Assembly: GCF_965641715.1 (NCBI RefSeq)
Contig: NZ_OZ282453.1
Length of the DNA stretch: 64,000 nucleotides
Origin: Escherichia coli
GTDB lineage: Bacteria > Pseudomonadota > Gammaproteobacteria > Enterobacterales > Enterobacteriaceae
Strand: one strand, 5' to 3'
Position numbers and translations under genes: made by a program
Notes under the pieces: model-generated
Seen by the model: only the letters and a program-made list of their open reading frames with translations
Told to the model about the DNA's origin: nothing
Database searches by the model: none
Shown here: positions 24,312-59,141 of the stretch, in pieces
Position numbering within the stretch: position 1 is the first letter of the stretch
How the letters are laid out: each line of letters begins with the position of its first letter

Positions 24312-24361
24312 TTCACCGGTGGATGTCGGTGCGGCTGGCCTACGCTCTCGCACCGACTTGT

Positions 24362-24447
24362 ATGCCTGATAAGACGTGTTAAGCGTCGCATCAGGCAATG
24401 TGCTCCTTACGTTGGATGCGGCGCGAGTGCCTTATCCAACCTACGGA
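24362..24447. repeat. REP pair between yiaT and the accessory hydrolase gene
   Basis: Units gcctgataagacgtgttaagcgtcgcatcaggc and ggatgcggcgcgagtgccttatccaacctacgg; the second overlaps the hydrolase stop. Confidence 0.55.
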
Positions 24448-26411
24448 TGGCAATGCTTTTCCTCATTCACCCAGATCCGCATTTCGCCTTCACCCCGGTT
24501 GGCCCAGCTAAACCACGGGATAAAGGTCAGAGTTTGCGTCTGGCGTTTGGCTGGCGCGCTGTCGTAATGCCACAGCGGTTGCTGCTCTGGATTGCTCTGT
24601 TCATACCGGTAACCCGGTGCCTGGATTAAGATCTTATGGCTAAACAATCCCTTGCCTTCAAATGTCGTAAATGGCGCATCGGTGGGCAGCCACAGATTAT
24701 GCAGTGACTCGCCGTTGTCGGCCTGTTCCAGGCAATACACCAGCGGGCCGCGCTGAATCGCCACTTTTCCGGCGACGTGACGCACCAGCGGGTTACCGTA
24801 AACGCGGCGTACCGGCATCGGCAAAGTCAGATTCAGCGTATCGCCCTCCTGCCATTCGCGGGTAATGTGCAAATACCCTTTACGAATATCCTGCTCGACC
24901 TCTTCCCCATTCAATATGATCTGCGGCTGTGTGCACCAGTCCGGCAGACGTAAAGCCAGCGTATGACGTACCGGCTGGGGCGATTCAACCGCAATCGTCA
25001 CCTGCTCCTGCCACGGATAGTTCCCGCTAACCCGCAGGCGCAGCGTGCCATTTTCTACCGGCACTTCCATGCTGTTTCCTGCGTATATGTTGATATACAA
25101 CGCATCTTCACGCGGCGTGTAGAGATAATGACCAATCGAGGTCAGCACGCGGGCGATATTTGGCGGACAACAAGCGCAGCCAAACCAACGCTGGCGGATC
25201 GGTTTAACGTGATCGTAGATATGGTTGAATTTCAGCGATTTTGGATGTACTTCCAGCGGATTCACATAGAAGAAATGTTTGCCATCCAGCGCCATGCCGC
25301 CGAGCACGGTGTTGTACAGTGCACGCTCCATCACATCGGCATATTGACTGTCGCCTTCCATTTCCAGCATTCGTCGGGCAAACATCATCAGGCCGATGGA
25401 GGCGCAACTTTCAGCGTATACCGTGTCATTCGGCAGATCGTAATCGCTAGTGAACGCTTCGCCGCTGCTTTGCGAGCCAATGCCGCCGGTAATATATAAC
25501 TGACGCTGGGCCATATTGTTCCACAGCCGCAGGCAGTCCTGACGCTTGCTGTCATCGTGACTTAAACGCGCGAGATGCGCGACGCCGGTCATCAGATAGA
25601 CAAAACGTACCGCGTGACCGATGGCGGTTTGCTGTTGCGCAAGGGGTAAATGTGCCTGGCTGTAGGCTTTGTCTTTCACCATCCACGCCGGGCCGTAGGT
25701 GTGCCAGTGCGATGTCTGCCCGCGCTTTTCATATTCCTGGTCGTAATAGTGCGGTTGCGCACCACGCTGTTCGACAAAATAGTTCGTCAGCGCCAGGTAG
25801 CGCGGCTCTTCAGTCACTTCATACAGGCGCATTAGTGCCAGTTCAATTTCCGGGTGACCAGGATAACCGTGTAACTTACTTTCATCTGGACCAAATACGC
25901 TGTCGATATGATCGGCCAGGCGGCAAACGACCCCCAGCAAGCGCCGTTTTCCCGTGGCCTGGAAGAAGGCGACTCCGGCTTCAATCAGATGACCTGCGCA
26001 GTAAAGTTCATGACACTCCGCCAGATTGCTCCAGCGTTCTTCGGGTGCTTTTACCGTAAAGTAAGTATTGAGATAGCCGTCTTCGCATTGGGCGGAGGCG
26101 ATCAGTTCGATTACCTCGTCGGCGGTTTTTTCCAGTTCGGCGTCCGGCTTCTGGCACAGCGACCAGGCTACCGCTTCCAGCCATTTGGCGACGTCGCTGT
26201 CCTGAAACACCATCCCGTAAAATTCACCCTCCTGAAGTCCGGCGGCAATGCGAAAGTTTTCAATCGCATGGCTGGGTTCCGCTTCTGGGATACGATCGTT
26301 CAAGGCATCCCACTGATAAGGAATCACCACGTCGCGGACCAGTTGTTGGTACTGACCGAGGAACGGATCGCTGACCGTCAGTTTATGCAGATCGACTTCC
26401 GAAATGTTCAT
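24441..26411 (-). CDS. Glycoside hydrolase family 127-like protein (DUF1680; beta-L-arabinofuranosidase-type), about 656 aa
   Basis: Motifs AESCASIG (Glu-x-Cys) and WFGCACCPPN (Cys pair) resemble the Zn/catalytic-Cys site of GH127 HypBA1; start refined to ATG 26411 with SD aaggag overlapping the upstream stop. Confidence 0.75.
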   Translation of the reverse strand: MNISEVDLHKLTVSDPFLGQYQQLVRDVVIPYQWDALNDRIPEAEPSHAIENFRIAAGLQEGEFYGMVFQDSDVAKWLEAVAWSLCQKPDAELEKTADEVIELIASAQCEDGYLNTYFTVKAPEERWSNLAECHELYCAGHLIEAGVAFFQATGKRRLLGVVCRLADHIDSVFGPDESKLHGYPGHPEIELALMRLYEVTEEPRYLALTNYFVEQRGAQPHYYDQEYEKRGQTSHWHTYGPAWMVKDKAYSQAHLPLAQQQTAIGHAVRFVYLMTGVAHLARLSHDDSKRQDCLRLWNNMAQRQLYITGGIGSQSSGEAFTSDYDLPNDTVYAESCASIGLMMFARRMLEMEGDSQYADVMERALYNTVLGGMALDGKHFFYVNPLEVHPKSLKFNHIYDHVKPIRQRWFGCACCPPNIARVLTSIGHYLYTPREDALYINIYAGNSMEVPVENGTLRLRVSGNYPWQEQVTIAVESPQPVRHTLALRLPDWCTQPQIILNGEEVEQDIRKGYLHITREWQEGDTLNLTLPMPVRRVYGNPLVRHVAGKVAIQRGPLVYCLEQADNGESLHNLWLPTDAPFTTFEGKGLFSHKILIQAPGYRYEQSNPEQQPLWHYDSAPAKRQTQTLTFIPWFSWANRGEGEMRIWVNEEKHCHP

Positions 26412-26421
26412 CTTGTGCTCC

Positions 26422-27822
26422 TTAAGGCTGTACATGACGCTGACGCAGGTCGGTAGCTATGCGTGACATCATAGGATTATTGAGTTTGCAAAAGCGGATC
26501 GCCCCTGCCAGCAGCAGGTGGAATAGCGCAGGCAGTAATGTTTCCATCGCCGCGATCCCGCCAAGCGAACTGGCGGTCTGGTTTTCCACGCCAGGCTGGT
26601 AGGCGACAAAAATAAACAGCAGGCTGATGATCCCGGCGCTGGAGGCCCAGGCCAGCTTGATGAAAAACAGATTGAAGGCGAAGTTCATGCCGGAAGAACG
26701 TACGCGGGTTTTCCACTCGCCGTAGTCATCGGCAAAGGCCATCAATGAGAAGTGCAGTGGCAATGTGAAGCCAAGAATCACGCCATTACCGAGGATCACC
26801 GCCAGCCACAGCGTTTGATAAGCCGGGCCGGAGGGCAGGAACCACATCAACACCGCCAGCGCAGCGAGGAGCTGGTTGGTGTAGTAGTAAATTTTGACGG
26901 TATCGAAACGCCGCGTTAACGGGCTGACAATCACCGAGCCGATAATGGAGGCGAAGGTGACCATGGTGAAGAACAGCGACGTGTAGCCCGTACTGCCTTG
27001 TAAGACGTAGGTAATGAAGTACATATACCCACCGCCGCGAATGTTAAAGACGTTAATCAGCAGGAAAGACATGACCAGCATCAGCAGCAGTTGGTCGTTG
27101 TTCCGCAGCCCGGCAAGATGTTCGCGCAGGGTAAATTTCCCCATTGTGGAGAGTGGCACCCGTTCACGAACCCAGAAGAAACAGCACAGAAACATCACCA
27201 CGGCGATGGCGCACAGCACGCCGACGCCCAGTTGATAGCCGCGCGCGGCATTACCCTGACCGAAGAGATCTACCATCCACGGTAAGCCTACCGAAACCAG
27301 AAATCCCGCTACGCCACAGAGAACGAATCGCCAGGACTGGCAGGAGATCACTTCATTGTGGCGGGTGGTCATGGTGTTGATCAGCGCGCAGTACGGTACG
27401 TTGATGGCGGTATAACCGACTGAAAGGAGCAGGTAAGTACCGAACGCCCAGGCGATTTTTACTCCCATGCTGGCATCTGGCACGGTGAACGTCAGGATGC
27501 CGATAATGCCGATGGGAATGGCAATCCATAGCTGCCACGGACGAAAGCGCCCCCATCGGCTTTGCGTCCGGTCGGCAATGACGCCCATCACCGGGTCGGA
27601 GATAGCATCAAACACGCGCAGTGCAATAAACAGCGTGCCAACCAGCGCCGGAGTTAATCCAAAAACGTCGGTGTAGAAAAAGGTGAGAAAGTTCATGATC
27701 AGGCAAGTTATTACGGTGCCGCCTGCGTCACCCAGGCCGTAGCCTATTTTTTCCCGTACAGATAACGCATCGTCAATTTTACCTTTAGCGATATCAGCGG
27801 TAGTAATCGGTGTAGAGGTCAT
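26422..27822 (-). CDS. Glycoside-pentoside-hexuronide (GPH) family sugar:cation symporter, 466 aa
   Basis: About 12 predicted transmembrane segments; GYGLGD motif near the N-terminus as in MelB/YicJ-type transporters; SD gagga upstream of the start. Confidence 0.75.
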
Positions 27823-28047
27823 AGATATTCCTCGTGAATAGGGAGCAATTTTTAGTTTTATTGAAATGACCTGATTAATTCTGCCGTGAACGGGAATATC
27901 AACAAGGCGAGAAAAGAGTAAAAAAAGGTGACGATTCCGACCTGAATTTAAAAGTGTGAAATGGATCAGGTGAAATTAATGTTTTTGATTAATAATCAAA
28001 AGGTAATGTGTTTAATCATTGATGAATAAGCGGGAAATTACATATCA
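27823..28047. promoter_or_regulatory. AT-rich divergent promoter region between the symporter operon and the AraC-type regulator, with direct repeat GTGAAAT-N7-GTGAAAT
   Basis: Read directly; direct repeats at 27954-27977 are typical of AraC/XylS-type operator half-sites. Confidence 0.35.
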
Positions 28048-28863
28048 ATGCTCGAATTATCCATGACGTTACCGATTAAAGTGCAAAATGGTGGATTATT
28101 TATTTCCCGTGGCGTAGGGAGGCATCCTGCAAGGCGGCTGGAGTCATGGGAAATTATCTTTGTCGAAAAAGGTCGATTAACGATTCAGGAAGAAGAACGG
28201 ATATTTCTGGTCGATGCGGGAGAGAGTTTATTACTCTGGCCGAACCGACAACATGTTGGGGTGGAGGATTTTCCCGCCGATCTCAAATTTTACTGGCTGC
28301 ATTTTGAGGTTAAAGCGCCGGACAACGACCCTCGCTGGCTTACTCATCTTAGCGTGCCGCAACAAACGAAGGTTGTCGATCCGCAGGCGCTGGTGGCCCT
28401 GTTTCGCCAGTTCTTAAGCGAACAGGAAAAGCATCAACGCACTCCGGCGCTGGAGTTTATTGTGCTGCTCATTTTGCAGCAGCTCACCCGTGACGCGCGT
28501 CTTGATGAACAGGCCGATGGCGCAGGCACCACCCTTGCCTGGAAAGCGCAGAAACTGATCCGCACGCAATATCATCGCCCGCTTTCTACGGCGCTTCTGG
28601 CCCGCGAGCTGTACTGCAATGCCGATTATCTTGGGCGCGTCTACCGGCGGGTGTTTCATCTGACGTTAACAGAAGCAATCCATCGCCAGCGGGTGCGCGA
28701 AGCCGAAAAGCTGTTAATTAGCGAAGCGCGATCGCTCACGGAAGTGGCGGCGTTGTGCGGGTTTAATGACGTTGGCTATTTCCGGCAGATTTTTCGCAAA
28801 CACACCGGTTTAACGCCAGCAGCGTGGAAGCGGCGTTACAGCAAGGAACATATCAATTCGTAG
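28048..28863 (+). CDS. AraC/XylS-family transcriptional regulator, 271 aa
   Basis: N-terminal cupin-like sugar-binding domain and C-terminal dual helix-turn-helix (ALCGFNDVGYFRQIFRKHTGLTPAAWKRRY); start could alternatively be Met6 at 28063. Confidence 0.75.
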   Translation: MLELSMTLPIKVQNGGLFISRGVGRHPARRLESWEIIFVEKGRLTIQEEERIFLVDAGESLLLWPNRQHVGVEDFPADLKFYWLHFEVKAPDNDPRWLTHLSVPQQTKVVDPQALVALFRQFLSEQEKHQRTPALEFIVLLILQQLTRDARLDEQADGAGTTLAWKAQKLIRTQYHRPLSTALLARELYCNADYLGRVYRRVFHLTLTEAIHRQRVREAEKLLISEARSLTEVAALCGFNDVGYFRQIFRKHTGLTPAAWKRRYSKEHINS

Positions 28864-32595: not shown

Positions 32596-33582
32596 TTATT
32601 GCACCTCATCCACGGCTTTCAGCAGATCAGCGCCCTGCGGCACATCTTTAACAAACATGTCACGAACCTGATTCCCCAGTGCGTCACTAAAGGCTTTGCG
32701 GTCGAGATCGGTAATCACTTCCACGCCCGCTTCTTTCATGCCGTCGATGATTTTTTGCTGATCTTCAGCAACCAGTTTGCGCTGATAGTTACCCGCTTCT
32801 TGTGCAGATGAAACTAGCGCCTGCTGGAACTCCGGACTTAAGTCATCAAACTTCGCTTTGTTGATCACCACCAGAAGCGGGGAATAGGCGTGGTGCGTCA
32901 GAGAAAGATACTTCTGTACTTCGAAAAATTTTGCTGACCAGACGACGTTGATCGGGTGTTCCTGAGCATCGATAGTGCGCGTTTCCAGCCCGGTATAGAC
33001 TTCGGCAAACGGCATCGGGATCGGGTTAGCGCCAAAAACTTTGAATGCCGCGATATTCATCGGACTATTGTTGGTGCGGATTTTCAGCCCTTTCAGGTCG
33101 GCGGGGGTTTTAACCGGTGCGCGCGAGTTGGTGACATCGCGCCAGCCGTTTTCCCAGTAGGCCAGTACTTTCAGTCCCTTACCTTCAAGGGAGACTTTCA
33201 GGTCATCACCGACTTTGCCGTCGAGCGTTTTATGCGCGTGAGCGGTATCGCGGAACAGGAAAGGGACGTCGAGCAGGTTGATGACGGGCGAGAGCCCCGT
33301 AAAGTTGTTAGAGCCAGACATCTCCATATCAATAGTGCCGCCACGTACGCCGCTGATCATCGCCTGCGCGTTACCGAGGGTGCTATCCGGGAACAGTTTT
33401 AATTTCAGCTCGCCTTTGGTTCTCTCCTGCAATAACTCATTGAATTTTTTCGCCGCAATATGTTGCGAGTCGGTTTGTGATGTTTCATAACCGAAACGTA
33501 AAGATTGTGCCGCCAGAGAAGATGTGCTGAATGCAGCCAGGCCAGCAATGAATAATGCATAGGTTACAGAGCGTAATTTCAT
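32596..33582 (-). CDS. yiaO: TRAP transporter periplasmic substrate-binding protein, 328 aa
   Basis: Signal peptide plus DctP-like sequence; order yiaM-yiaN-yiaO. Confidence 0.92.
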   Translation of the reverse strand: MKLRSVTYALFIAGLAAFSTSSLAAQSLRFGYETSQTDSQHIAAKKFNELLQERTKGELKLKLFPDSTLGNAQAMISGVRGGTIDMEMSGSNNFTGLSPVINLLDVPFLFRDTAHAHKTLDGKVGDDLKVSLEGKGLKVLAYWENGWRDVTNSRAPVKTPADLKGLKIRTNNSPMNIAAFKVFGANPIPMPFAEVYTGLETRTIDAQEHPINVVWSAKFFEVQKYLSLTHHAYSPLLVVINKAKFDDLSPEFQQALVSSAQEAGNYQRKLVAEDQQKIIDGMKEAGVEVITDLDRKAFSDALGNQVRDMFVKDVPQGADLLKAVDEVQ

Positions 33583-33594
33583 AATATTTTCCTT

Positions 33595-34872
33595 TTAATT
33601 AATCCATTTCAAAGGGAGGATGATGAGATCGGGAATAAAAACAAATACGACTAATAAGGAATATAAAACCAGGACATAAGGGAAAACGCCTCTGACTGCA
33701 TCATCGAATTTGAGTTTTGCCACCCCTGAAATAACGTTAAGCACATTACCGATAGGCGGTGTAATTAAGCCGATTGAGCAGTTAATGATAAACATGACAC
33801 CGAAATAAATCGGATCGATTCCTGCCTCTTTAACTAAAGGCATTAATACCGGGGTAAGAATTAATACCGTCGGCGTTAAATCCATGACCATGCCAACAAT
33901 CAGGATAGCCACCATAATGACGATAAACAGCAGACGCGGTGAATCGACCAACGGTTGTAGTAAATCAGAAACCATCATCGGCAGTTCAGCAATGGTAATC
34001 AGCCAGGCGGAAACTTGTGCCGAGGCCACCAGAAACATCACCACTGAGGTGGTTTTCGCCGCGCCAATAAGCACATGCCAAAGTGTGGCGAAGGTCATTT
34101 CACGGTAAATAACCGTGGCGACAAATAACGCATAGAAAGCAGCAACAGCCCCGGCTTCGGTAGGGGTAAACAGACCGGAGCGAAAACCCCCAATAATGAT
34201 GACCGGAAGAAACAGCGCCCAAATACCGGAGACAAAAGAGTGCCAGATTTCCTGCATCGTCGCTTTTTGCTGGCGGGGTAAATTAAGACGACTGGCCTGC
34301 CACCACCAGGTAAGCATCAGTGTTGCGCCCATCATAATGCCTGGGGCAATGCCCGCCATAAACAGCTTACTGATGGATAATCCGCTGGAAACACCGAAGA
34401 TAATAAATGGAATGGAAGGGGGAATAATTGGCGCGATAATTCCGCCAGAGGCAATTAGCCCCGCCGCCCGGTTGACCGGGTAGTTGGCGCTGCGCATCAT
34501 CGGCACCAGTAGAGCTGCAACGGCAGCGGTATCTGCAACGGCAGAACCGGAAAGGCTCGCCATAATCATTGCCGCCAGCACGCCGACGTAGCCAAGCCCA
34601 CCAGGCTTATGCCCCACCAGTTTCATCGGCAGGTCAACAATGCGTTTCGACAAGCCGCCCGCATTCATGATTTCACCCGCCAGCACAAAGAACGGGATCG
34701 CCAGCAGGGAGAAGCTGTCGGCACCGTTCACCAGCGTTTGTGCCATGATCTGGACATCAAACATATCCAGCCAGAACATTAACGCTGCGCCACATAACAA
34801 AAGCGCCCAGGCAATAGGCAAACCGATAGCAATGCCACCCAACAGGCAGCCCAGAAAAATCAGCACAGCCAT
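33595..34872 (-). CDS. yiaN: TRAP transporter large permease (DctM-like), 425 aa
   Basis: Polytopic membrane protein, DctM family. Confidence 0.92.
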   Translation of the reverse strand: MAVLIFLGCLLGGIAIGLPIAWALLLCGAALMFWLDMFDVQIMAQTLVNGADSFSLLAIPFFVLAGEIMNAGGLSKRIVDLPMKLVGHKPGGLGYVGVLAAMIMASLSGSAVADTAAVAALLVPMMRSANYPVNRAAGLIASGGIIAPIIPPSIPFIIFGVSSGLSISKLFMAGIAPGIMMGATLMLTWWWQASRLNLPRQQKATMQEIWHSFVSGIWALFLPVIIIGGFRSGLFTPTEAGAVAAFYALFVATVIYREMTFATLWHVLIGAAKTTSVVMFLVASAQVSAWLITIAELPMMVSDLLQPLVDSPRLLFIVIMVAILIVGMVMDLTPTVLILTPVLMPLVKEAGIDPIYFGVMFIINCSIGLITPPIGNVLNVISGVAKLKFDDAVRGVFPYVLVLYSLLVVFVFIPDLIILPLKWIN

Positions 34873-35465: not shown

Positions 35466-35936
<471 letters not shown>

Positions 35937-35944
35937 TTATCTCC

Positions 35945-36943
35945 TCATAACGCCTGGATTTTGGCCCACACGCTGTCATCAACAGTGATGCCGTTACGGC
36001 GGTTTTCGGCCAGCAGGGTAGTAAATTCATGGCCGGGTAAGCGGATGGCCTGGTTTTCGTCAGCGCGTTCAGCGGTAGTAACGTAATCCATGATGCGTTG
36101 CAGCTTGGCATCGCGGGTGGGGCCGTCGATCAATTTATCCACTTCGATGGCGATAAAGATTTGCGAAACGCCGTATTCGTCGCTGTTGTCCTGGGTGACT
36201 TCGGCAACCGATGCGCCGTCGGAAAGGAGAGTAGCGATCATATCCAGCACAATCGACATGCCAGAACCTTTCCAGTAGCCCATCGGCAAAATGCGGCGAT
36301 TCTTCTCGATAACGCCAGGTTCTTTGGTCAAATTGCCCTCATCATCAAAGCCACCATCGACCGGGAGCTGACGGCCCGCCAGGCGGTTAACTTCTAACAT
36401 GCCGTAAGAGAACATCGACATCGACATATCGACCATGGTGATCGGCGTGGAAGGAATGGCGACGATCAGCGGGTTAGTGCCGATGCGACACTCTTTTGCG
36501 CCCCACGGCGGCATTACGGCGATGGAGTTGGTCCAGCAAATGCCAATATAGCCTTTTTCCGCCGCCTGCCAGCCGTAGCTGCCGCCGCGCATCCAGTGGT
36601 TGGCATTACGAAGTGCCACCAGACCAATACCGTGATCGGCAGCCAGTTCAATGGCGCGATCCATCATCTTTTTCGCCGTCAGGTTGCCGATCGAACGCTG
36701 GGCATCCCACTGTTCAATTGCGCCGAGGCTGGTTATACGTTTGGGTTGGGCATCAGGAATGATATCGCCGTTTTCCAGTTGTTGAATGAAACGAGGGAAA
36801 CGATTAACGCCGTGAGAATAAACGCCGGATTCGGTGGTGCGGGCGAACATCTCTGCACAGGCGTCAGCCGTTTCACTGTCAACGCCGCGTGAAATTAAGA
36901 CTCGATTAAAGGCTGCTTTTAACTGCTCAAATGTCACTTTCAT
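35945..36943 (-). CDS. yiaK: 2,3-diketo-L-gulonate reductase, 332 aa
   Basis: Ldh2-family dehydrogenase sequence; first gene of the operon, divergent from yiaJ. Confidence 0.92.
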
Positions 36944-54271: not shown

Positions 54272-55183
54272 ATGCAAAAGTTTGATACCAGGACCTTCCA
54301 GGGCTTGATCCTGACCTTACAGGATTACTGGGCTCGCCAGGGCTGCACCATTGTTCAACCATTGGACATGGAAGTCGGCGCGGGAACCTCTCACCCAATG
54401 ACCTGTCTGCGCGCGCTGGGGCCAGAACCGATGGCGGCTGCTTATGTTCAGCCTTCTCGTCGCCCGACCGATGGTCGCTACGGCGAAAACCCCAACCGTT
54501 TACAGCACTACTATCAGTTCCAGGTGGTCATTAAGCCATCGCCGGACAATATTCAGGAGCTGTACCTTGGTTCTCTGAAAGAGCTGGGCATGGACCCGAC
54601 TATCCACGATATCCGTTTCGTGGAAGATAACTGGGAAAACCCGACGCTGGGTGCCTGGGGACTGGGCTGGGAAGTGTGGCTAAACGGCATGGAAGTGACG
54701 CAGTTCACTTACTTCCAGCAGGTTGGTGGTCTGGAGTGTAAACCGGTTACCGGCGAGATCACCTACGGTCTGGAACGTCTGGCCATGTACATTCAGGGCG
54801 TGGACAGCGTTTACGACCTGGTCTGGAGCGACGGCCCGCTGGGTAAAACCACCTACGGCGACGTGTTCCATCAGAACGAAGTGGAGCAGTCCACTTACAA
54901 CTTCGAATACGCGGATGTGGACTTCCTGTTCACCTGCTTTGAGCAGTACGAGAAAGAAGCGCAGCAGCTGCTGGCGCTGGAAAATCCGCTGCCGCTGCCA
55001 GCTTACGAGCGTATTCTGAAAGCCGCCCACAGCTTCAACCTGCTGGATGCGCGTAAAGCCATCTCCGTCACTGAGCGTCAGCGCTACATTCTGCGCATTC
55101 GCACCCTGACCAAAGCAGTGGCAGAAGCATACTACGCTTCCCGTGAAGCCCTCGGCTTCCCGATGTGCAACAAAGATAAGTAA
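54272..55183 (+). CDS. glyQ: Glycine--tRNA ligase alpha subunit, 303 aa
   Basis: Full-length match. Confidence 0.96.
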
Positions 55184-55192
55184 GAGGCGGCT

Positions 55193-57262
55193 ATGTCTGA
55201 GAAAACTTTTCTGGTGGAAATCGGCACTGAAGAGCTGCCACCAAAAGCACTGCGCAGCCTGGCAGAGTCCTTTGCTGCGAACTTTACTGCGGAGCTGGAT
55301 AACGCAGGCCTCGCACACGGCACCGTTCAATGGTTTGCTGCTCCGCGTCGTCTGGCGCTGAAAGTAGCTAACCTGGCGGAAGCGCAACCGGATCGTGAAA
55401 TCGAAAAACGCGGCCCGGCGATTGCCCAGGCGTTCGACGCTGAAGGCAAACCGAGCAAAGCGGCAGAAGGTTGGGCGCGTGGTTGCGGTATTACCGTTGA
55501 CCAGGCTGAGCGTCTGACTACCGATAAAGGCGAATGGCTGCTGTATCGCGCCCATGTGAAGGGCGAAAGCACTGAAGCACTGCTGCCGAATATGGTTGCG
55601 ACTTCGCTGGCGAAACTGCCGATTCCGAAACTGATGCGCTGGGGTGCAAGCGACGTGCACTTCGTGCGTCCGGTGCACACCGTGACCCTGCTGCTGGGCG
55701 ACAAAGTCATTCCGGCAACCATTCTGGGCATTCAGTCCGATCGCGTGATTCGCGGCCACCGCTTTATGGGCGAGCCGGAATTCACCATCGATAACGCCGA
55801 TCAGTATCCGGAAATTCTGCGTGAGCGCGGGAAAGTCATCGCCGATTACGAAGAACGTAAGGCGAAGATTAAAGCCGATGCCGAAGAAGCAGCGCGTAAG
55901 ATTGGCGGTAACGCTGACTTAAGCGAAAGCCTGCTGGAAGAAGTGGCTTCGCTGGTGGAGTGGCCGGTCGTTCTAACCGCGAAATTTGAAGAGAAATTCC
56001 TCGCGGTGCCGTCTGAAGCACTGGTTTACACCATGAAAGGTGACCAGAAGTACTTCCCGGTGTATGCGAACGACGGCAAACTGCTGCCGAACTTTATCTT
56101 CGTTGCCAACATCGAATCGAAAGATCCGCAGCAAATTATCTCTGGTAACGAGAAAGTCGTTCGTCCACGTCTGGCTGATGCCGAGTTCTTCTTCAACACC
56201 GACCGTAAAAAACGTCTGGAAGATAACCTGCCGCGCCTGCAAACCGTGCTGTTCCAGCAACAGCTGGGTACGCTGCGTGACAAGACTGACCGCATCCAGG
56301 CGCTGGCTGGCTGGATTGCTGAACAGATTGGCGCTGACGTTAACCACGCTACCCGTGCGGGCCTGCTGTCTAAGTGTGACCTGATGACCAACATGGTCTT
56401 CGAGTTCACCGACACCCAAGGCGTTATGGGGATGCACTATGCGCGTCACGATGGCGAAGCGGAAGACGTAGCCGTGGCGCTGAATGAGCAGTATCAGCCG
56501 CGTTTTGCTGGTGATGACCTGCCGTCCAACCCGGTAGCTTGTGCGCTGGCGATTGCTGACAAGATGGATACTCTGGCGGGTATCTTCGGTATCGGTCAGC
56601 ATCCGAAAGGCGACAAAGACCCGTTTGCGCTGCGTCGTGCCGCGCTTGGCGTGCTGCGTATTATCGTTGAGAAGAACCTCAACCTTGATCTGCAAACGCT
56701 GACCGAAGAAGCGGTGCGTCTGTATGGCGATAAGCTGACTAATGCCAACGTCGTTGATGATGTTATCGACTTTATGCTCGGTCGCTTCCGCGCCTGGTAT
56801 CAGGACGAAGGTTATACCGTTGACACCATCCAGGCGGTACTGGCGCGTCGTCCGACTCGTCCGGCTGATTTCGATGCCCGCATGAAAGCGGTATCGCACT
56901 TCCGTACCCTGGAAGCAGCTGCAGCACTGGCGGCGGCGAACAAACGTGTATCTAACATCCTGGCGAAATCTGACGAAGTGCTGAGCGATCGCGTGAATGC
57001 CTCTACTCTGAAAGAGCCGGAAGAAATTAAACTGGCGATGCAGGTTGTGGTGCTACGTGACAAGCTGGAGCCGTACTTTGCGGAAGGTCGTTACCAGGAT
57101 GCGCTGGTCGAACTGGCAGAGCTGCGTGAACCGGTCGATGCCTTCTTCGATAAAGTGATGGTCATGGTTGATGACAAAGAATTGCGTATCAACCGTCTGA
57201 CCATGCTGGAGAAACTGCGCGAACTGTTCCTGCGCGTTGCGGATATTTCGCTGTTGCAGTAA
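55193..57262 (+). CDS. glyS: Glycine--tRNA ligase beta subunit, 689 aa
   Basis: Full-length match; 9-bp spacer after glyQ. Confidence 0.96.
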
Positions 57263-57306: not shown

Positions 57307-57585
57307 TCGCTAAATAATAGAGCAACCTTTAATAATCTTCTGCTGAATAAAGATTATCTCATATATTAATTTTATGAGATTTTTTTAGGATTATATCAAG
57401 GAGAAGAAACAAACTTATTAAGCTAGAATAGCCACGGGTGCTTGAGACTGTTTGTCTCAGGTATTCACCGAAAGGCAGACAGAGAAAAGCCCCACCTGAC
57501 TATAAATCAAAGTGAGGCCCCTCTATGCATAGACACCATAAGGTTAGCCTCTTACTCGTTGGAAATCAACACAGGGGGGCTGGGA

Positions 57586-57738
57586 ATGCCGCAGAAATAT
57601 AGATTGCTTTCTTTAATAGTGATTTGTTTCACGCTTTTATTTTTCACCTGGATGATAAGAGATTCACTGTGTGAATTGCATATTAAACAGGGGAGTTATG
57701 AGCTGGCGGCATTTTTAGCCTGCAATTTGAAAGAGTAA
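57586..57738 (+). CDS. hokA: Hok-family type I toxin, 50 aa
   Basis: MPQKYRLLSLIVICFTLLFFTWMIRDSLCELHIKQGSYELAAFLACNLKE: one transmembrane helix and conserved Hok C-terminus; an in-frame upstream extension exists in the ORF track (57442). Confidence 0.8.
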   Translation: MPQKYRLLSLIVICFTLLFFTWMIRDSLCELHIKQGSYELAAFLACNLKE

Positions 57739-57870
57739 GAGTCTTTGGCGGGAAATTATTCCCGCCTTTCTTACGGCGTTGGCATTCTCATTGCACCCAA
57801 ATTTATTTTTCACAAAAATAATACTAGATTTTATTACGCGATCGATTATTTATTTCCTGAAAAACAAATA

Positions 57871-57897
57871 AAAAAATCCCCGCCAAATGGCAGGGAT
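57871..57897 (-). terminator. Rho-independent terminator of cspA
   Basis: On the minus strand, hairpin atccctgcc / ggcgggga (one mismatch) followed by a U-run. Confidence 0.65.
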
Positions 57898-57924
57898 CTT
57901 AGATTCTGTGCTTTTAAGCAGAGA

Positions 57925-58137
57925 TTACAGGCTGGTTACGTTACCAGCTGCCGGGCCTTTAGCGCCGCTTTCGATGGTGAAGGACACTTTCTGACCTTCG
58001 TCCAGAGATTTGTAACCATCGTTCTGGATAGCAGAGAAGTGTACGAACACGTCTTTAGAGCCATCGTCAGGAGTGATGAAGCCGAAGCCTTTGTCAGCGT
58101 TGAACCATTTTACGATACCAGTCATTTTACCGGACAT
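57925..58137 (-). CDS. cspA: Major cold-shock protein CspA, 70 aa
   Basis: Exact CspA-type sequence with RNP motifs KGFGFI and VFVHF. Confidence 0.97.
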
Positions 58138-58297
58138 AGTGTATTACCTTTAATAATTAAGTGTGCCTTTCGGCGATATGGCGTGCTTTACAGATTTTGA
58201 AGCGTTAAAGGAATGTGCACTACGAGGGGTATCAACGATAACTCTTGAAGGGACTTGCCTTACTACACTGCTTTAATGGTCTGTACGTCAAACCGTT
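58138..58297 (-). promoter_or_regulatory. cspA long 5' UTR (cold-responsive RNA thermosensor region)
   Basis: About 160 nt upstream of the cspA start; role from established knowledge; exact transcription start not determined here. Confidence 0.6.
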
Positions 58298-58417: not shown

Positions 58418-58708
58418 CTATTCCATCAACTGATTACTTAATGCCGGGTTGGCTTGAATCAAACGCATCAATTTTAGTTCGGCACTTGAAGGCTTCACGC
58501 GTCTGGATTCCCATTCCTTTACCATGGCGACTGATACGCCCAAAACCCGGGCGAAATCATCGATTTTTAATCCTGTCCCTTTTCGTAACTGCTCAATTTC
58601 GGTACAGGACGTTGTTCTGTGCGTCAGGGTAATTTTCTGCGTTTCATCTTTAAAAACAATCTGTTCCAGGCTGCTCAACAGCTCATGCATTGGATCTTTA
58701 TATTCCAT
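58418..58708 (-). CDS. yiaG: XRE-family helix-turn-helix protein YiaG, 96 aa
   Basis: Cro/C1-type helix-turn-helix (LRKGTGLKIDDFARVLGVSVAMVKEWE). Confidence 0.85.
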   Translation of the reverse strand: MEYKDPMHELLSSLEQIVFKDETQKITLTHRTTSCTEIEQLRKGTGLKIDDFARVLGVSVAMVKEWESRRVKPSSAELKLMRLIQANPALSNQLME

Positions 58709-59141
58709 TGAAAACTCCTCAAATCACACTGCGGGATCGTGAATTGCATCGAAGCTCATTAAGAATAGTCGGGAAAAGCAGACACAGCGGGGTGAAGTCA
58801 GGGCATGCTCTGGCTATGATTCGATTCAGCCAGTCATTTAGCGTGACTTATAGCCACCTAACGATCTGATAAATGCCGATATATCTCTTACCACTCCTGG
58901 TTTGTAAAGATTTCGAAAATCTAACCTTCTGCGAAGGCGTAAATCTCTGGCTACAAAAAAGGCAACGGCAATATCATTTTTTAACAATGAAACAACAAAT
59001 TAACCTTGTTTCATTTTCTCCATGATTTTACCAGGAAGATTACGTAGAAAGGGTATCCTGCAAGCCTGTCCTGGACTATCCTTGTCACGTCAGACACGCG
59101 TGTGTCGTTGTGCGCTTTTTTTGGGTGAAAGGAGTAAGAAA

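Follow-up and report, generated by a model that had tools for sequence, protein, structure and literature searches.

In enteric bacteria, operons that join a GPH symporter to a glycosidase are known, for example yicJ-yicI and uidA-uidB. In these systems, which have a regulator of their own, a sugar is imported and then hydrolysed within the cell by a cytoplasmic glycosidase. Translational coupling of neighbouring genes is a functional dependence, and as such lies beyond what a sequence can reveal. Its classic form has the stop codon fused to the next start (ATGA or TAATG, at -4 or -1 nt), as in trpB-trpA and in hyfH-hyfI and menD-menH, tested by Huber et al. Termination-reinitiation is placed at distances of about -8 to +6 nt (PMC10666635). 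This limit is itself debated, because other E. coli studies tolerate gaps of up to about +25 nt; in some reporter studies coupling was undiminished out to +25 nt (review PMC12548453). Depletion of RRF left coupling unchanged genome-wide (PMC7538156). Another class comprises 203 E. coli pairs (7% of the unidirectional pairs) with gaps of +9 to +12 nt and a Shine-Dalgarno (SD) sequence in the spacer; for these, independent initiation, or coupling through some other mechanism, is considered likely (Huber et al. 2023, PMC10666635).

The window analysed here, a stretch of 64,000 nt of Escherichia coli DNA, harbors a cassette that resembles the yicJ-yicI and uidA-uidB type: a GPH symporter, a glycoside hydrolase and a regulator of their own. 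The symporter gene (26422..27822, minus strand, 466 aa) has the coordinates of the RefSeq 'MFS transporter'. Its product matches Pfam MFS_2 (E 3e-72) and scores 331.7 bits against TIGR00792 (gph), above the curated cutoff of 231.35, being thus a GPH-family MFS sugar:cation symporter. The hydrolase gene (24441..26411, minus strand, 656 aa) encodes the Pfam GH127 catalytic, middle and C-terminal domains (374, 84 and 89 bits, with cutoffs of about 24). The nearest solved structure is the GH127 beta-L-arabinofuranosidase 4qjy (E 3.4e-234), and Bifidobacterium HypBA1 (3wkw) is matched at E 7e-151. Both matches run over the full length, the E. coli protein has the three-domain architecture of these enzymes, and the ExC and CACCPPN motifs are conserved, YAESCAS and GCACCPPN aligning with YAETCAS and SCACCPPN of 4qjy. 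Going by the catalytic residues of HypBA1, we take the E-x-C and C-C motifs to be the Cys/Glu metal site and nucleophile. The NCBIfam equivalog for aceric acid hydrolase was not reached (456 bits, cutoff 950). The strong full-length match to 4qjy suggests that the enzyme is probably a cytoplasmic beta-L-arabinofuranosidase. The cassette differs from the yicJ-yicI and uidA-uidB type in that its enzyme belongs to GH127 and that no characterised E. coli substrate was found in the literature; a literature search for any E. coli GH127/MFS/AraC locus that has been characterised returned unrelated marine GH127 papers only.

An AraC-family regulator (28048..28863, plus strand; Pfam HTH_18 and AraC_binding, and RefSeq) is divergent from the symporter, and this arrangement suggests that it presumably activates the symporter-hydrolase operon. 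The presumed promoters would lie in the 225 nt between the divergent genes (27823..28047), where a consensus sigma-70 scan gave no match, as expected of an activator-dependent promoter. The cassette is an accessory locus that was deleted in K-12, and its symporter-hydrolase junction is absent from MG1655. The locus is complete in 2315 complete genomes, and strain O145:H28 RM12761 is one carrier. Most start-site profiling has been done in K-12, and since the junction is deleted in MG1655, those data do not apply to it.

At the junction, on the minus strand, the symporter stop codon TAA (26422..26424; TAA or TGA at the aligned position in orthologues) is followed by the SD AAGGAG (26418..26423), a 6-nt spacer CACAAG (26412..26417) and the ATG (26409..26411), leaving 10 nt between stop and start. 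The longest hydrolase ORF (26435..24441, 664 aa) begins eight codons further upstream in the same frame, at an ATG (26433..26435) that lies within the symporter codons CAT-GTA, giving a 14-nt overlap with the symporter. The earlier note had reported this overlap and also a strong SD in front of ATG 26411 that runs into the symporter stop. All minus-strand coordinates check, and the SD proved to be conserved, sharing its first two bases with the last two of TAA and forming a duplex of -8.4 kcal/mol with the 16S tail ACCUCCUUA, within the top 1% of 2141 ATGs in the window. Two copies of the arrangement TRAGGAG-N6-ATG are present in the window, where 0.14 would be expected, and both are real gene starts, which is beyond chance. 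A scan of the junction for minus-strand promoter-like or terminator-like sites found none; this, together with the 10-nt gap, supports co-transcription of the symporter and the hydrolase. An Rfam scan of the whole window found no family at the junction; the matches elsewhere were the cspA thermoregulator, sok and ES036 only.

The same earlier note had called the arrangement classic for coupled translation, a label that does not fit. As in the ATGA and TAATG junctions, the genes are adjacent, co-directional and apparently on one mRNA, and the next start is within reach of the terminating ribosome. However, stop and start are separate here (+10 nt, beyond the -8 to +6 range), the SD is essentially outside the upstream coding region, lying in the spacer, and the products are not known complex subunits. 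The junction belongs instead with the +9 to +12 class of E. coli (PMC10666635). Here too co-directional genes are separated by a gap that barely fits an SD and leaves no room for a promoter or terminator, and the SD is suitably spaced from the start. Nothing material differs, and the 2-base overlap of SD and stop is found at yiaK>yiaL as well.

This geometry was followed in 80 genome loci, from which 53 distinct orthologous junctions were aligned. The gap was scored as exactly 10 nt in 57 of the 80 loci and 7 more tie to 10 nt; about 64 of the 73 symporter-linked loci have this distance. The in-frame start with the best SD coincides with the aligned Met or lies two to four codons to either side of it, at an ATG that keeps a gap of 9-10 nt; three loci differ, with gaps of 12, 16 and 33. 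GGAG is invariant in 52-53 of the 53 junctions, while the spacer between SD and start is fixed in length and free in sequence (entropy of 1.1-2.0 bits per position). Phytobacter and Kosakonia have lost the first three codons through a 9-nt deletion, yet TAA-GGAG-N6-ATG was re-created exactly. Bradyrhizobium homologues keep AAGGAG-N7-ATG without an upstream symporter, which indicates that a ribosome binding site of this type works alone. The locus thus offers a clear case of an SD kept invariant next to a stop codon over many enterobacterial genera, although it does not settle the question of coupling at +10 nt.

The hydrolase almost certainly starts at ATG 26411 and not at 26435. RefSeq/PGAP annotates a 656-aa GH127 protein from 26411 with the 10-nt gap, so this start is already in the reference annotation, and the junction is ordinary and already known. 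An alignment of orthologues had been named beforehand as the check, with conserved residues upstream of this Met as the outcome that would speak against it. The 120 homologous proteins examined are 649-656 aa long, their first Met aligns with that at 26411 in all 120, and none carries an N-terminal extension. These N-termini are themselves gene predictions, and the tests at the DNA level are independent of them. A start at 26435, or the use of both starts to give two isoforms, is extremely improbable. ATG 26435 does give the longest ORF, at least two GenBank records (CDU34819.1 and CDP67628.1) contain the 664-aa form, and 29 of the 53 junctions, about half of the orthologous loci, have the upstream ATG. 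However, the T of this ATG falls at the wobble position of a His codon in the symporter, and in the other 24 junctions it was lost through synonymous CAT-to-CAC changes. It has no SD, with a predicted pairing to the 16S tail of +0.4 kcal/mol. Two loci (L035 and L056) have in-frame stops between the two ATG positions, and several have no in-frame upstream start. Ahead of the stop, the junctions vary in the manner of the symporter frame only, at symporter third codon positions, which are the second positions of the supposed hydrolase extension. Finally, homology to solved GH127 structures and the Pfam domain start at residue 11 or 12 of the 656-aa protein, the match to 4qjy beginning at residue 11. 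On this comparative evidence the 664-aa form was rejected and is close to refuted; ATG 26435 would be an accident of the symporter His-Val codons and presumably goes unused.

The symporter and the GH127 hydrolase would thus form one two-gene transcript, divergent from the AraC-type regulator, with the hydrolase translated from ATG 26411 by means of its own AAGGAG, two bases into the symporter TAA. We consider it probable that initiation there is mainly independent, driven by this SD through ordinary 30S recruitment. Coupled translation at the junction is possible. Since terminating ribosomes, 10 nt upstream, may add to a mainly SD-driven initiation, any coupling would be partial and facultative, not obligate. 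Of what the earlier note proposed, the start and the stop-overlapping SD stand, while the coupling is supported in part only, the hydrolase having a strong SD of its own and no conserved structure that occludes it. An obligate mechanism, in which the ribosome stays on the mRNA after finishing the symporter, is captured by the stop-codon SD and begins again at 26411, so that hydrolase output is tied to that of the symporter, is unlikely. The short gap, an SD abutting the stop, a stop-SD-start geometry shared by more than 60 species and restored after the 9-nt deletion, and several E. coli studies with coupling at +10 to +25 nt (PMC12548453) speak for it. Against this, re-initiation drops steeply with distance, and the +9 to +12 class falls outside efficient termination-reinitiation (Huber et al. 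2023, PMC10666635). The hydrolase SD is strong and optimally spaced, so a donated ribosome is not needed, and the Bradyrhizobium homologues use such a site on its own. A fixed transporter:enzyme stoichiometry is also unsupported, and no complex of a soluble hydrolase with a membrane symporter is known to us. That the SD has been retained strictly beside the stop in over 60 species would fit selection for re-initiation and simple compactness equally. It is distinctly unlikely that the stop-GGAG-N6-ATG module is kept because its stop-adjacent SD captures the terminating ribosome; if it were, such +10 junctions would be genuine re-initiation devices and not just compact independent starts. Coupling could also act through RNA unfolding, with the SD and start sequestered by the symporter 3' coding sequence and opened by translating ribosomes, which is very unlikely here. 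The modelled probability that the SD is unpaired is indeed low, 0.10 in the window (with a context of ±100 nt) and 0.31 on average across species against 0.45 overall, and for this reason some structure-mediated coupling is possible. The minimum free energy fold of the window also pairs AGGA with an upstream UCCU. However, this pairing is absent from the centroid structure, the UCCU corresponds to Asn-Pro codons that vary synonymously, and the predicted partners of the SD change from species to species (-16..-14, -73..-71 and +48..+51). Against shuffled sequences the junction shows no excess stability (z = 0.64), 145 of the 200 shuffles folding equally well, and the RNAalifold consensus of 25 species has 5 pairs only, all far upstream and none at the SD or start. 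A structural gate was therefore rejected, the single-sequence fold, the 25-species consensus and the per-locus accessibility having given nothing significant or conserved. These results support mainly independent initiation at 26411, which, with a strong SD and no significant or conserved occluding structure, is at least as likely as coupling.

The significance of these results beyond correct annotation is small. Calling the longest ORF gives a wrong N-terminus here (664 aa in place of 656 aa), and an expression construct of the E. coli GH127 enzyme should begin with MNISEVDLHK. Other junctions of the +9 to +12 class are found in the same window, namely yiaK>yiaL (35931-35947), which has TGAGGAG and a gap of 11, glyQ>glyS with a gap of 9, and yiaN>yiaO with a gap of 12.

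The symporter and hydrolase genes both lie on the minus strand. The symporter ORF (27822..26422, 466 aa) ends in a TAA at 26424-26422, and the longest hydrolase ORF (26435..24441, 664 aa) overlaps the symporter gene by 14 nt. A second in-frame hydrolase ATG (26411-26409) is found eight codons inside this ORF, preceded by the Shine-Dalgarno (SD) sequence AAGGAG (26423-26418), which has two bases in common with the symporter TAA, and by the 6-nt spacer CACAAG. The junction reads, 5' to 3' on the minus strand, ...CGT CAT GTA CAG CCT TAA GGAGCACAAG ATG AAC ATT.... The coordinates given in the earlier note are all correct once they are taken on the minus strand, and the junction observation is confirmed. 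The symporter belongs to the GPH family of MFS sugar:cation symporters, with a Pfam MFS_2 match at E 3e-72 and a TIGR00792 score of 331.7 bits (cutoff 231). The hydrolase is a GH127 glycoside hydrolase with three Pfam domains; among solved structures it is closest to the GH127 beta-L-arabinofuranosidase 4qjy (E 3.4e-234) and then to HypBA1 (3wkw), and its ExC and CACCPPN motifs are conserved and align with the solved GH127 structures. An AraC-family regulator gene (28048-28863, Pfam) is divergent from the pair. Judging from family membership, this AraC-type activator would turn on a two-gene mRNA, the symporter would import a beta-L-arabinofuranosyl sugar and the GH127 enzyme would hydrolyse it in the cytoplasm.

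The start codon of the hydrolase is almost certainly ATG 26411, as is already the case in the reference annotation; RefSeq/PGAP, homologous proteins, junction conservation and SD pairing energy all support it. RefSeq/PGAP gives a protein of 656 aa starting at 26411, with an intergenic gap of 10 nt. The 120 best homologous proteins have 649-656 aa, and the N-terminus M-x-x-x-E-V-D-L-H aligns with Met 26411 in 120/120. Since the N-termini of homologues are themselves predictions, the start was also examined at the DNA level in 80 loci, one genome per species. In 57 loci the gap between the symporter stop (TAA or TGA) and an ATG is exactly 10 nt, and seven further loci tie to this geometry. Among the 53 distinct junctions with this geometry, GGAG at -10..-7 is invariant (52-53/53), while the six spacer positions have entropies of 1.1-2.0 bits each. 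Just 29 of the 53 have, at position -23, the T that makes up the upstream ATG; in the symporter frame this is the wobble base of a His codon (CAT/CAC). The variable sites 5' of the stop (-14, -17, -20, -23 and so on) are third codon positions in the symporter frame and second codon positions in the supposed hydrolase extension. In-frame stops occur between the upstream ATG and 26411 positions in two loci (L035 and L056), and several of the 80 loci have no in-frame start upstream of the aligned 26411. In Phytobacter, Kosakonia, Superficieibacter and relatives (L014, L016, L017, L019, L036 and L069), a 9-nt deletion at the junction took the first three hydrolase codons, leaving the N-terminus MEVDLH, and the TAA-GGAG-N6-ATG geometry was exactly rebuilt. 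The predicted energy of pairing to the 16S 3' tail is -8.4 kcal/mol at 26411 (top 1% among the 2141 ATGs of the window) versus +0.4 kcal/mol at 26435. In the 656-aa form, homology to solved structures and to the Pfam catalytic domain starts at residues 11-12. The start ambiguity raised in the earlier note is real in public data, where two deposits (CDU34819.1 and CDP67628.1) have the 664-aa form and the 656-aa form is found in 598 contigs, and the reference annotation has resolved it. Upstream of Met 26411, the orthologues show no conservation of translated residues. The 664-aa start at 26435 is very unlikely in view of its lack of SD pairing, its poorly kept ATG, the in-frame stops and the symporter-frame variation.

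Initiation of the hydrolase is probably mainly independent: translation from ATG 26411 would occur chiefly through its own SD, and ribosomes terminating 10 nt upstream may make a minor addition. Translational coupling to the symporter is plausible but unproven. The two genes are expected to share a transcript, given the 10-nt gap and a scan of the minus strand at the junction that found no promoter- or terminator-like site, and a ribosome terminating at the symporter TAA would cover the hydrolase SD and start. Against obligate coupling, this SD is strong and its spacing optimal, and the junction does not fold better than shuffled sequences (z = 0.64; 145/200 shuffles fold equally well). In a consensus fold built from 25 species the SD and start are unpaired, and all of its mere five pairs are located far upstream. 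The predicted unpaired probability of the SD is rather low (0.10 in the window and on average 0.31 over the loci, versus 0.45 overall), yet its predicted partners vary by species. Furthermore, Bradyrhizobium homologues (71% identical) keep AAGGAG-N7-ATG without an upstream symporter. The sequence offers an opportunity for coupling, dependence being beyond its reach. The idea that the junction fixes transporter:enzyme stoichiometry is unsupported; the symporter is a membrane protein and the hydrolase is soluble, and no complex between them is known. As for the "classic arrangement for coupled translation", the SD at the stop stands, but the label is overstated, since the classic arrangement is an ATGA/TAATG stop-start overlap and here there is a 10-nt gap instead.

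The literature on gaps of the +10 type also makes this label too strong. Gene-pair distances in E. coli have a small peak at +10/11 nt, and the +9..+12 nt class, to which our junction belongs by its gap and its SD in the spacer, contains 203 pairs (7% of unidirectional pairs), nearly all polycistronic, with barely room for one SD (Huber et al. 2023, PMC10666635). These authors regard such pairs as "likely to be initiated independently", or else as coupled in some other way; re-initiation in their experiments dropped steeply with distance, and coupling through short overlaps is over-represented in subunits of heteromeric complexes (PMC10666635). Coupling is most efficient at -4 to +3 nt; between +5 and +25 nt it depends on context, and anything from no loss to a complete one has been seen (Brown and Wade 2025, PMC12548453). 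RRF depletion leaves coupling unaltered, a result that speaks against a major role for re-initiation in E. coli (Saito et al. 2020, PMC7538156).

The symporter-hydrolase junction is an ordinary operon junction of a known kind. By the RefSeq annotation of a genome that is 99.8% identical, 14 same-strand pairs of the 64-kb window are spaced by 12 nt or less, four of them in the +9..+12 class, which includes glyQ>glyS (55177-55195, gap 9) and yiaN>yiaO (33580-33597, gap 12). At yiaK>yiaL (35931-35947, minus strand), another pair of this class, TGAGGAG likewise overlaps the yiaK stop, and the ATG follows after a gap of 11 nt rather than 10. Exact TRAGGAG-N6-ATG occurs twice in the window versus 0.14 expected, both times at true gene starts. 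The other match is the start of yiaG (58418-58708), with TGAGGAG-N6 at 58706-58721 on the minus strand; the window's ORF list has no long upstream ORF ending at this TGA.

In E. coli, the cassette of AraC-family regulator, symporter and hydrolase is located between yiaT and an sgbE/araD-like gene, and at least 80% of it is present in 2315 of 5426 complete genomes. K-12 MG1655 (L085, 3750700-3751200) lacks window ~24739-28759, comprising most of the AraC gene, the whole symporter and most of GH127, as well as ~24339-24548. What remains is the 3' end of the AraC-family gene and an internal GH127 C-terminal fragment (89% identical), annotated as the pseudogenes ysaC and ysaD. The junction is therefore absent from the strain used for most start-site profiling. 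Some Citrobacter and Enterobacteriaceae genomes (L081 and L082, the same genomes as L027 and L006) have a second symporter-GH127 pair, ~70% identical and with a shorter junction (TGAGGTAAACATGATG), and the cassette was therefore duplicated or twice acquired. GH127 homologues ~71% identical to the enterobacterial enzyme are present in several Bradyrhizobium genomes (L073-L077, L079). This identity, unusually high between Alpha- and Gammaproteobacteria, suggests horizontal transfer. The 90%-identity cluster with the GH127 protein also lists a 466-aa "MFS transporter" (P0128), probably a clustering or labelling artefact of the protein collection. Elsewhere, an IS150 element is inserted upstream of hokA in the near-identical reference strain PapM-32-1 (L084, 22840-24209) and is absent from the window (~57400). 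In the window, matches at the Rfam gathering score were found for sok (57436-57588, plus strand) and for a cspA-type thermoregulator (57870-58297, minus strand).
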